DNA from: Candidatus Sungbacteria bacterium RIFCSPLOWO2_01_FULL_54_21
GTDB lineage: Bacteria; Patescibacteriota; Minisyncoccia; Sungbacterales; HO2-52-23
DNA: 44,547 nt
Direction: 5' to 3'
Assembly: GCA_001820725.1 (NCBI GenBank)
Contig: MHQR01000037.1
Span: forward strand, 1 to 44,547
Part shown: one piece after another, positions 21,141 through 22,991 of the stretch
Layout: each line of letters opens with the position of its first letter
Position numbering within the stretch: position 1 is the stretch's first letter
Program-made: the position numbers and the translations under genes
Notes under the pieces: model-generated
What the model saw: the letters and a program-made list of their open reading frames with translations, nothing else
The model's database searches: none
Told to the model about the DNA's origin: nothing

Positions 21141-21211
21141 TTGCGGGACCGGGATTTGCACCCGGGTCTCAAGGTTATGAGCCTCGCGAGGTACTTCTCC
21201 TCCACCCCGCA
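21141..21211 (-). tRNA. tRNA-Met(CAU), initiator-like, atypical
   Basis: TGCGGGG/TCCCGCA acceptor, GAGG/CCTC D stem, CGAGG-CTCATAA-CCTTG, CCGGG-TGCAAAT-CCCGG. Confidence 0.85.
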
Positions 21212-21343
21212 GACAAAGTATACCTCATTCCCTAAGAAAAACAAGGCACATAAAAGAGATTGCAAATCTCTTGTCCGTTTGCGGAAAATAATGTATGCTT
21301 TTTCTGAAAGGTTTAGGGTTGTTCATTTGTCAACTTGGGAGAT

Positions 21344-21352
21344 TGTGGATAA
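21344..21352 (-). promoter_or_regulatory. DnaA box
   Basis: TGTGGATAA perfect match in divergent intergenic region. Confidence 0.5.
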
Positions 21353-21397
21353 TTCCTTTGGAAAATAGACGGAAGCCATAGTAAAATATATACTACT

Positions 21398-22087
21398 ATG
21401 GCTAAGTTCGAAAAGAGGTTGGAAGCCCGTGCGTTGAGAAGAAAGGGATGGAGTATCCGCTCCATTGCCTCACATCTTGGGATCTCTCGTGCTTCGTCAA
21501 GCGTTTGGTGCAGCGATCTACAGCTTACTCAGCGCCAAAGTGATCTTCTTTTTAAGAATGCCGTGCAAGCGGGCCATGTGGGAAGAATGAAAGGCGCTCT
21601 TGCGAATCGTCAGAAAAAAGAAGCAGCTATCGCGTCCTATAAGGAAGCGGGGCAGAGGGAAATATCAGCGCTTTCTTTTCGGGAAGTGCTGTTAACGGGA
21701 GTTGCGCTTTATTGGGCGGAAGGAAGCCGGAAAAGCAAGTTTGCGTTCACTAATTCAGAACCGGCAATGGTCGCATTCATGGCTTATTGGCTGGAACATA
21801 TATTTGGGATCAAGAAAGAGGAGTTTATGCCGCGTATCTTCATCAACGCCATCCACGAGCCGCGCATCAGAAAAGTTGTACGGTTCTGGTCTGATTTTTT
21901 GGGCGTATCGGTGCGTCAGTTCGGAAAGCCCGTACTCTTGAAGGGCAGGCCGAAGAAGATATATGAAAACCATGAGCATTATTACGGCGTATTAGCTCTC
22001 GGCGTGCGAAGGAGCGGGAATCTGAAATATCGCGTCTTGGGTCTTATTGATGCGCTGAAAAGTGCCGAAAAAATTTCGCCGGCGTAG
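21398..22087 (+). CDS. HTH + LAGLIDADG-like putative endonuclease ending inside tRNA-Met
   Basis: N-terminal HTH 'RRKGWSIRSIASHLGISRASSSVW'; 'GVALYWAEGS...FTNSEP' resembles a LAGLIDADG helix. Confidence 0.6.
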   Translation: MAKFEKRLEARALRRKGWSIRSIASHLGISRASSSVWCSDLQLTQRQSDLLFKNAVQAGHVGRMKGALANRQKKEAAIASYKEAGQREISALSFREVLLTGVALYWAEGSRKSKFAFTNSEPAMVAFMAYWLEHIFGIKKEEFMPRIFINAIHEPRIRKVVRFWSDFLGVSVRQFGKPVLLKGRPKKIYENHEHYYGVLALGVRRSGNLKYRVLGLIDALKSAEKISPA

Positions 22088-22150
22088 CTCAGTGGTTAGA
22101 GCGATCGCTTCATAAGCGATAGGTCGCAGGTCCAATTCCTGCCGCCGGCA
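22078..22150 (+). tRNA. tRNA-Met(CAU), probably elongator (Ile2 not excluded)
   Basis: GCCGGCG/CGCCGGC acceptor, ATCGC-TTCATAA-GCGAT, T loop TCCAATT. Confidence 0.9.
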
Positions 22151-22173
22151 TGGGTGTTGTGAACAAAGAATAC

Positions 22174-22893
22174 ATGAAGAAAAAAAATATCCGATGGAAG
22201 CGCGTCATGCTGAAATTGTCGGGCGAGACGTTCGGCGGCAAGGGACAGTTCGGTTTGGATGTGGACGCGACCAACTATATCGCCAGCGAAGTAAAGGCGA
22301 TCACGGATATGGGGTGCGAAGTCGGGATCGTCGTGGGCGGCGGCAACTTCATCCGTGGTGAAAAACTTTCCCGCATCGGCATTGACCGTGTGACCGCCGA
22401 CTATATGGGAATGCTGGGCACGATCATCAATGCCATGGCATTGCAAAGCATGCTGGAGACGATGGGCCTGTATACTCGCGTGATGAGTACGATTACCGCC
22501 ATCCATGTGGCCGAGCCATTCATCCGCCGCCGCGCCATCCGGCACCTGGAAAAGGGGAGGGTGGTCATCTTTTCCGGCGGCACGGGCAATCCATATTTTT
22601 CCACAGACACTGCCGCGGCATTGCGCGCGTCGGAAATAGACGCCGAGGTCATCCTGAAGGCGACCAATGTGGAAGGCGTATACGAAGAAGACCCTAAACA
22701 GAACACGCAGGCGAAACTTTTGAAAGAAATTGATTCCAAAGAAATGGTCCGGCGCGGTTTGAAAGTGATGGATTTGACGGCCGTAACGCTGGCAATGGAG
22801 AACAAGATTCCGATGATCGTGTTTGATGTATTCAAGGAAGGCAATCTGAAACGACTGCTCCTGGGAGAAAAGATCGGTTCAGAAGTAAAATAA
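22174..22893 (+). CDS. pyrH: UMP kinase
   Basis: 'LKLSGE', 'GGGNFIRG', 'DYMGMLGT', 'GNPYFSTD'. Confidence 0.96.
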   Translation: MKKKNIRWKRVMLKLSGETFGGKGQFGLDVDATNYIASEVKAITDMGCEVGIVVGGGNFIRGEKLSRIGIDRVTADYMGMLGTIINAMALQSMLETMGLYTRVMSTITAIHVAEPFIRRRAIRHLEKGRVVIFSGGTGNPYFSTDTAAALRASEIDAEVILKATNVEGVYEEDPKQNTQAKLLKEIDSKEMVRRGLKVMDLTAVTLAMENKIPMIVFDVFKEGNLKRLLLGEKIGSEVK

Positions 22894-22908
22894 TTCGCAT
22901 GGGACTAT

Positions 22909-22982
22909 GCGGGCGTAGCTCAGTTGGTTAGAGCGCTTCCCTGTCACGGAAGAGGTCGCCGGTTCGAGTCCGGTCGCCCGCG
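22909..22982 (+). tRNA. tRNA-Asp(GUC)
   Basis: GCGGGCG/CGCCCGC-G73, CTTCC-CTGTCAC-GGAAG, TTCGAGT. Confidence 0.95.
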
Positions 22983-22991
22983 CACCCTAGA

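Follow-up and report, generated by a model that had tools for sequence, protein, structure and literature searches.

The stretch analysed here (hereafter the window, 44,547 nucleotides of contig MHQR01000037.1 from Candidatus Sungbacteria bacterium RIFCSPLOWO2_01_FULL_54_21) contains an open reading frame (ORF) of 229 amino acids with an ATG start (21398..22087, forward strand), the stop codon of which lies inside the gene for tRNA-Met. The ORF is probably a free-standing, homing-endonuclease-like selfish gene situated in the 5' leader of that tRNA, a reading to which we assign a probability of roughly 0.6. It is drawn from a combination of evidence: a LAGLIDADG-like domain predicted to form a dimer with retained acidic residues and accompanied by an additional DNA-binding domain; several copies per genome that are precisely present or absent at conserved sites; and the occurrence of decaying copies beside constrained ones, with the nearest relatives lying outside the host lineage. 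Within this reading, the family to which the ORF belongs is specialised in a single niche in Patescibacteria, the tRNA 5' leader.

The tRNA-Met(CAU) gene occupies positions 22078..22150 of the forward strand (ARAGORN; Rfam tRNA, 74.3 bits). The TAG stop codon of the ORF (22085..22087, forward strand) is formed by U8-A9-G10 of the tRNA, the sequence reading TTTC up to the tRNA 5' end and GCCGGCG-TAG-CTCAG from it. A further tRNA(CAU) gene, of initiator type, lies divergently from the ORF on the reverse strand (21141..21211; ARAGORN; Rfam tRNA, 54.5 bits), and the ORF is therefore placed between two divergent CAU tRNA genes. In both respects the first-pass annotation, which had been made from the sequence alone, was correct. 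When 60 nt of leader was added, tRNA-Met still had the cloverleaf as its minimum-free-energy fold. The junction of ORF and tRNA was bridged without differences by contigs (21385-22943 and 22041-22280) of further public DNA runs, which may share a sampling campaign with the source. Four DNA runs were mapped to the locus in a search for variants without the ORF; all joints had sides of less than 45 nt at 85% likeness, and both depth and joints were dominated by conserved tRNAs from other organisms.

Alleles without the ORF, for which the first-pass annotation had proposed cleavage tests, were found in genomes of the same genus. The two CAU tRNAs are separated by 866 nt in the window. In G001, G002 and G003, which belong to the same genus, the spacer measures 82, 101 and 83 nt respectively, and in G004, from the same family, 82 nt; all four genomes keep the upstream gene, both CAU tRNAs, pyrH and tRNA-Asp. 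Comparison of the spacers delimits an inserted segment of approximately 778 nt (21300..22077, forward strand) that is absent in the same-genus alleles. A putative resident promoter of tRNA-Met, composed of TTGTCC (21271-21276), a 17 nt spacer and TATGCT (21294-21299), was recognised upstream of this segment by aligning it by eye with the ORF-less alleles (21271..21299, forward strand); in a MAFFT alignment it corresponds to -35 and -10 boxes located 11-12 nt upstream of tRNA-Met in G001-G004. The site agrees with 8 of 12 consensus positions, which is below the threshold of the promoter scan. Alignment of the boxes places the insert between the resident -10 box and +1 of the tRNA.

The source genome (G000) carries two more copies. 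One (26% identical; contig C36, locus L082) ends 7 nt before tRNA-Glu(CUC) and is absent in same-genus G003, where the gap between the upstream gene and the tRNA is 28 nt, compared with 741 nt in G000. An 8-nt sequence, CTAGAAAT, was noticed by eye at both junctions of this copy (L082:1425-1440 and L082:2150-2165); the repeat could be a target duplication, microhomology or a chance occurrence. The third copy is truncated where its contig ends.

Homologues numbered 168 among the matches listed, at 40-72% identity, and were unnamed or 'HTH domain' proteins of Patescibacteria metagenome-assembled genomes. A total of 2873 clusters (50% identity) matched at E ≤ 0.001, and GTDB species genomes hold relatives in no fewer than 554 stretches. 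For the survey of distances from homologue stop codons to tRNA 5' ends that the first-pass annotation had called for, 132 loci were pooled: 80 from the search of GTDB species, 22 paralog loci from G000 and its relatives, and 30 from a phylum-wide sample that included the window locus (L114). These yielded 136 near-full-length hits, representing 135 distinct sequences. In 108 of the 136 members, a tRNA on the same strand has its 5' end between -82 and +77 nt relative to the stop codon, and in 67 of these 108 the ORF overlaps the tRNA. The stop codon coincides exactly with tRNA bases 8-10 (offset -10) in 41 of the 108; in 41 it falls just before the tRNA and outside its body, indicating that a stop within the tRNA is common and not required. 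Smaller classes comprise 10 loci at offset -39 or -38, in which the stop lies about 38-39 nt into the tRNA and, by eye, matches a UAA formed from U36-A37-A38 after the CAU anticodon, and 5 loci at -21 to -25. The -10 class dominates among the three possible frames, a dominance inflated by shared ancestry, and recurs in Met, Val, Ile, Trp and Phe clades.

Linked tRNAs fall into 18 anticodon classes (Met 69, Ile-UAU 7, Gly-UCC 5, Trp 4, Gln 3, Val-UAC 3 and others); Met is over-represented owing to the way in which loci were fetched. As a background, 11 of 1320 stop-to-stop frames of at least 150 amino acids in G000 had a same-strand tRNA 5' end in the same -82 to +77 interval around their stop, and 2 of the 11 were members of the family. 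The geometry of stop codon and tRNA is far beyond chance. When tRNA identity was traced on a FastTree phylogeny of the 136 sequences, 20 changes accounted for 18 states over 108 rows, against a minimum of 37 changes in 200 shuffles; the non-Met rows gave 19 changes for 17 states over 39 rows, against a shuffle minimum of 26. Since kin share labels, the tree demonstrates fidelity of clade to tRNA and not the cause of that fidelity.

Group I introns were encountered in the tRNA genes of these loci. Initiator-type CAU tRNAs of the relatives and of many family loci carry an intron of 185-300 nt in the anticodon loop, as at L084:2396-2768 (G003), at L086 (contig C45 of G009) and at loci L034-L079, where the tRNA is encoded on the strand opposite to the ORF and precedes its start by approximately 77-104 nt. 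ARAGORN placed the intron at position 32-38 and often miscalled the anticodon as Leu caa or cag; when 20 loci were scanned, Rfam Intron_gpI gave 13 hits, distributed over 12 of them. Introns were also seen in tRNA-Thr, tRNA-His and tRNA-Phe. By analogy with 'collaborative homing', one possibility is that members of the two Met-clade subclades linked only to such an intron-bearing tRNA cooperate with the intron.

Presence of the family is patchy, as the first-pass annotation had anticipated. A match at E ≤ 1e-10 was obtained in 62 of 301 genomes of the phylum (58 of 254 high-quality genomes), with one to nine matches where present, and any match in 19 of 40 relatives from the same genus, family or order (20 of 41 including G000). 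The best identity to the window protein in that sample of relatives was 39%; metagenome proteins reach 72%. Broken copies were recovered from several genomes, with in-frame stops in G009, G099, G072, G281, G265 and G115 and a frameshift in G015; the G009 copy (39% identical) is interrupted by an internal TAG and the frameshifted G015 copy is 34% identical. Among intact copies, four pairs of close homologues gave ratios of nonsynonymous to synonymous substitution (dN/dS) of 0.09-0.16, although dS was close to saturation, and on these ratios intact copies are under purifying selection. Gene transfer may have taken place, the argument for it being drawn solely from absence in relatives.

The full-length AlphaFold2 model (predicted local distance difference test score, pLDDT, 90.9) consists of an N-terminal helix-turn-helix (HTH) domain (residues 2-40), a long helix of approximately 45 residues (45-88) and an alpha/beta LAGLIDADG-like domain (91-225). 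The HTH domain (21401..21517, forward strand) gave weak matches to Pfam HTH_23, HTH_7 and Terminase_5. Its presence in the ORF, claimed in the first-pass annotation, is borne out by the family, HTH_23 being matched by 30 of 30 aligned members, and structural comparison using VIA aligned the domain with the HTH domains of resolvase, DeoR and SIRV1 ORF55 at Z 6.0-7.2. The C-terminal domain was refolded alone using an alignment of 40 sequences over many clades (pLDDT 93.1) and the model was compared with 48,161 PDB representative chains. Ten chains reached Z ≥ 5, nine of which are LAGLIDADG-fold proteins (Z 5.0-7.1, 79-89 residues, root-mean-square deviation 3.0-4.5 Å): WhiA (7.1), the TliVMA intein endonuclease (6.8), I-DmoI (6.5), E-DreI (6.2), I-Vdi141I (6.0), I-Tsp061I (5.9), two Thermotoga WhiA entries and an intein endonuclease (5.0). 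The full-length model matched the same LAGLIDADG families.

A LAGLIDADG-like motif, G101-V-A-L-Y-W-A-E108-G109 (21698..21724, forward strand; consensus GxxLYWxEG), is located on helix 94-108. Conservation among the 136 members is high at G101 (121), L104 (128), Y105 (132), W106 (120), E108 (132) and G109 (134); position 108 is Asp in one further member, and E108-G109 is invariant in the 30-sequence alignment. Prediction of a homodimer of the domain gave a score of 0.74, compared with 0.01 for the best control, with agreement between runs of 95% of contacts or better and pLDDT of at least 87. Among proteins with solved structures, 20 of 30 pairs attained this mark, as did 1 of 23 single chains. 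The motif helix forms the predicted interface, with contacts that include 103:103, 107:107 and 108:108. The predicted dimer would have the classic LAGLIDADG geometry, and its pass may reflect likeness to, or memory of, solved LAGLIDADG dimers. Judged from modelled fold and motif, from which the label is taken, the protein is a divergent LAGLIDADG-like fold outside the curated families.

Tandem double forms, in which the HTH and LAGLIDADG-like domains occur twice in 532-576 amino acids, also exist (P0187, P0194 and P0256), and their Ala/Arg/Gly-rich composition suggests high-GC hosts outside Patescibacteria. LAGLIDADG enzymes evolved from homodimers to single chains, and the tandem forms parallel that transition.

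Several observations weigh against a selfish nuclease of the tRNA leader. All Z scores are at or below 7.1, and so below 8, a range in which VIA warns of a mere common arrangement, and the top structural match, WhiA, is a non-cutting transcription factor. Foldseek searches against the PDB returned no match at E ≤ 0.001; the best rows were YfiB, MotB and IspF, and I-DmoI appeared with a probability of 0.94 at E of about 0.1-0.2. The LAGLIDADG-like label proposed in the first-pass annotation is upheld by the fold (9 of 10 chains at Z ≥ 5), the motif glutamate and the predicted homodimer, and fails at the level of sequence profiles: searches of Pfam, of NCBIfam and of the PDB, the last by sequence and by profile, returned HTH domains or noise only and matched no LAGLIDADG profile. 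When 30 members were searched at E ≤ 5, the best 25 of 61 Pfam families were nearly all of HTH type, with no LAGLIDADG family among them; no GIY-YIG Pfam match was obtained for the query or the 30 members, and a feature search of the ESM Atlas with the C-domain returned unnamed clusters only. At the level of loci, 28 of the 136 members have no adjacent downstream tRNA, and two subclades of the Met clade adjoin only an intron-bearing upstream tRNA (77-104 nt; 289 nt at one locus). The promoter homology that fixes the insertion point rests on a short alignment of five sequences. Lastly, fidelity of clade to tRNA and strong purifying selection are also to be expected of a vertically inherited host gene.

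The most probable of the rival explanations is that the protein is a domesticated, non-cutting, WhiA-like DNA-binding protein that would bind at its own tRNA gene, or close to it, and regulate the tRNA operon, being inherited vertically and lost repeatedly in shrinking genomes. The structural likeness to WhiA, the HTH domain, the low dN/dS values, the agreement of clade with tRNA identity and the position of the gene at the head of an operon with an essential tRNA and a pyrH-like gene are all compatible with such a role. Against it, the Glu-Gly of the motif, which WhiA has lost, is kept (Glu in 132 and Gly in 134 of 136 members), and zero to nine copies, some of them broken, occur in genomes of 0.5-1.5 Mb. 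At two loci, moreover, the gene is precisely missing from genomes of the same genus, with tRNAs and flanks kept, and the nearest relatives (60-72% identity) are found outside the sample of the protein's own genus, family and order, in which the best identity is 39%. We consider a regulator unlikely.

Less probable again is a variant of the selfish reading, a mobile cassette comprising the ORF and its own copy of the tRNA, which would cut into the resident tRNA gene, replace it and leave a 5' stump of it upstream. Identity of the window tRNA-Met reaches 82-84% with ORF-linked tRNAs from distant genomes but no more than 70-71% with its syntenic counterpart in G001, G003 and G009, as a cassette would predict; however, the tRNA of ORF-less G002 is 89% identical to that of the window, and tRNA-Asp also varies between 64% and 100% among the same relatives, so that divergence of the tRNA is not diagnostic. 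A candidate stump was found at L120, where a second copy of tRNA positions 1-19 precedes the ORF by 69-87 nt (L120:1414-1432; p=0.007). No stump was detectable in the window when compared with four versions of the tRNA (p=0.86-0.99), and p ≤ 0.01 was reached at 2 of 106 loci (L120 and L130) and p ≤ 0.05 at 5 of 106, which is about the chance expectation. In addition, the insert apparently still has the resident promoter upstream of it.

An RNA-binding maturase or chaperone that folds or splices tRNA precursors, including those with the group I introns common in this lineage, is very improbable: LAGLIDADG proteins can be group I intron maturases, and the Intron_gpI hits, the introns called by ARAGORN in adjacent upstream tRNAs and the two Met-clade subclades linked only to an intron-bearing tRNA agree with it, but an intron is present in only 4 of the 108 downstream-linked tRNAs and in neither CAU tRNA of the window, and an N-terminal HTH with a symmetric dimer that pairs acidic residues is the mark of an enzyme acting on DNA.

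Returning to the selfish-gene reading, the following course of events can be proposed. A gene with a probable short promoter of its own would have been inserted between the resident -10 box and +1 of the tRNA, and the essential tRNA would then be transcribed through the ORF and cut free by ribonuclease P (RNase P), removal by which would make the insertion harmless in the way that self-splicing does for an intron. As the junction is tight, the reading frame enters the tRNA and stops at the conserved U8-A9-G10. A transcript cut by RNase P would lack its stop codon and would be handled by transfer-messenger RNA (tmRNA); such loss of the stop may limit expression of the nuclease, as the first-pass annotation had proposed. 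What the gene would gain from the niche is strong transcription and a highly conserved neighbouring sequence. Co-transcription of ORF and tRNA, processing of the precursor by RNase P and a regulatory effect of the nonstop product would be expected on this model, as would DNA cleavage and homing by the proteins of the family.

Promoter-like sites TTGGAA-18-TAAAAT and TAGACG-17-TATACT lie directly upstream of the ATG (21358..21394, forward strand), and the promoter scan detected three overlapping sites there, compared with a shuffle mean of 1.4. In 16 Met-clade loci the last 30 nt or so before the ATG form a conserved A/T-rich block, and in 5 of the 16 a terminator-like hairpin, identified by eye, separates this block from an upstream tRNA on the same strand. 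From the A/T-rich block and hairpins, the element probably carries its own promoter. A promoter for the tRNA inside the ORF, which would be at odds with the scheme set out in the first-pass annotation, was not seen: the window scan returned no promoter-like or terminator-like site within the ORF, nor between the ORF, tRNA and pyrH, and promoters were not enriched in the 60 nt upstream of linked tRNAs (6 of 108 scoring at least 9/12; shuffle mean 3.2, maximum 9). G000 encodes both RNase P RNA (156 bits) and tmRNA. From the sequence arrangement, tRNA-Met most likely arises from a transcript that runs through the ORF and is then cut by RNase P.

A broader proposition is advanced tentatively, and may well not hold: that in ultra-small bacteria tRNA leaders constitute a dedicated and previously undescribed niche for selfish nucleases, which would act as RNase P-dependent 'introns by proxy', recognition of one particular tRNA gene having evolved in each protein clade. 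The stop codon within the tRNA would set translation and RNase P in a race, and tmRNA would destroy the product of cut transcripts, so keeping the nuclease low despite the strong tRNA promoter.

Downstream of tRNA-Met lie a pyrH-like kinase gene (22150..22893, forward strand; Pfam AA_kinase, E 1.7e-36), the true start of which, by eye, is probably an ATG a few codons further in, and tRNA-Asp(GUC) (22909..22983, forward strand; ARAGORN and Rfam), which marks the syntenic end of the unit. The order tRNA-Met, pyrH-like gene, tRNA-Asp (22078-22983) is kept in relatives and no terminator-like site was found between them, from which it follows that the inserted ORF stands first in an operon with two tRNAs and an enzyme gene that looks essential. 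The source genome is 767 kb in 37 contigs and 99.6% complete, and a whole-genome ARAGORN search found only two CAU tRNAs, plus tRNA-Ile(UAU). One of the two CAU tRNAs is thus the initiator and the other the sole elongator tRNA-Met found; the minus-strand gene was assigned as initiator on its A11:U24 pair, which we take to be an initiator identity feature. The same set of tRNA genes suggests that AUA is decoded by the UAU anticodon and not by a lysidine-modified CAU tRNA.

Two further observations concern the carriage of mobile genes near tRNAs. A member of 27% identity is present on two IMG/VR contigs of 497 kb and 372 kb (L145 and L146:2001-2651), where it is wedged between tRNA-Asn and tRNA-Glu genes on the opposite strand and is an exception to the same-strand rule; these large contigs are a possible phage carrier of the family. 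Separately, an IS200-like Y1 transposase gene in G000 (Y1_Tnp, E 5e-7; C18:28384-29055, reverse strand; L156:485-1135, reverse strand) stops 14 nt before tRNA-Gly(UCC), and tRNA leaders may be a general parking place for mobile genes in this genome.

A full-text search, with most subscription journals outside its scope, found no paper that deals with this family or with endonuclease genes located in the leaders of bacterial tRNAs. What appears to be new is a LAGLIDADG-like family of free-standing genes with a highly specific niche, together with a new route of removal at the RNA level. If the selfish-gene reading is true, the leader of an essential tRNA would be a new hiding place for selfish genes, where the universal RNase P would clear them from the product; they would gain a strong promoter, and the highly conserved sequence beside them could be a portable homing target. 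A large family without an assigned function would acquire one, and would offer a natural set of tRNA-gene-specific, HTH-tethered LAGLIDADG scaffolds. The same transcripts would be a natural setting for competition between translation, tRNA 5' processing and rescue by tmRNA. As regards annotation, the family explains many Patescibacteria gene calls that run into tRNA genes.

Among known systems, the homodimeric LAGLIDADG enzymes with a single motif, of the I-CreI, I-MsoI and I-CeuI type, together with the related archaeal enzymes I-DmoI, I-Vdi141I and I-Tsp061I, share a similar core fold with the family (Z 4.5-6.5 over about 75-86 residues, at approximately 3-4 Å). Alike in both are a motif helix bearing an acidic residue followed by Gly, a symmetric dimer, here predicted, and single-chain tandem forms. 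The family protein differs in giving no Pfam LAGLIDADG match and in its additional parts, an HTH at the N-terminus and a helix some 45 residues long, and its gene is free-standing and sits before tRNA genes (108 of 136) instead of within an intron or intein. WhiA (DUF199), which matches best in structure (Z 7.1 over 89 residues), also combines a LAGLIDADG scaffold with an HTH. It is a sporulation and cell-division transcription factor encoded by a conserved single-copy host gene, with two degenerate LAGLIDADG domains in one chain, a C-terminal HTH and loss of the catalytic acids. Proteins of the family have one such domain, carry the HTH at the N-terminus and conserve the Glu, and their genes are patchily present in multiple copies and have ORF-less alleles.

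In 'collaborative homing', reportedly seen in the cyanophage psbA/F-CphI system, a free-standing endonuclease lies beside an intron-containing gene. Group I introns with endonuclease genes resemble the proposed arrangement in that a selfish nuclease is removed at the RNA level and the host product is left intact; their removal is by ribozyme, whereas that proposed for the family would be by host RNase P, with the ORF outside the mature RNA. In mitochondrial tRNA punctuation, mRNAs abut tRNAs and are released by 5' processing, the stop codon being completed by polyadenylation. The two cases are alike in that the stop of the mRNA is not complete or secure after cleavage; they differ in that a bacterial mRNA without a stop is a substrate for tmRNA, and in that the family gene is optional and probably mobile.

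A precedent in lifestyle is SegB of phage T4, a free-standing homing endonuclease encoded in the T4 tRNA gene cluster and recognising a conserved tRNA motif (PMC2330249). Both are free-standing selfish nuclease genes among tRNA genes, and SegB provides a precedent for tRNA genes as conserved homing targets; it is a GIY-YIG enzyme of a phage, and neither a leader position nor a stop codon shared with a tRNA is reported in the abstract (PMC2330249). The family, by comparison, is LAGLIDADG-like and cellular (Patescibacteria), is associated with at least 18 tRNA species and lies flush with the tRNA 5' end, so that its likeness to SegB is one of lifestyle only.

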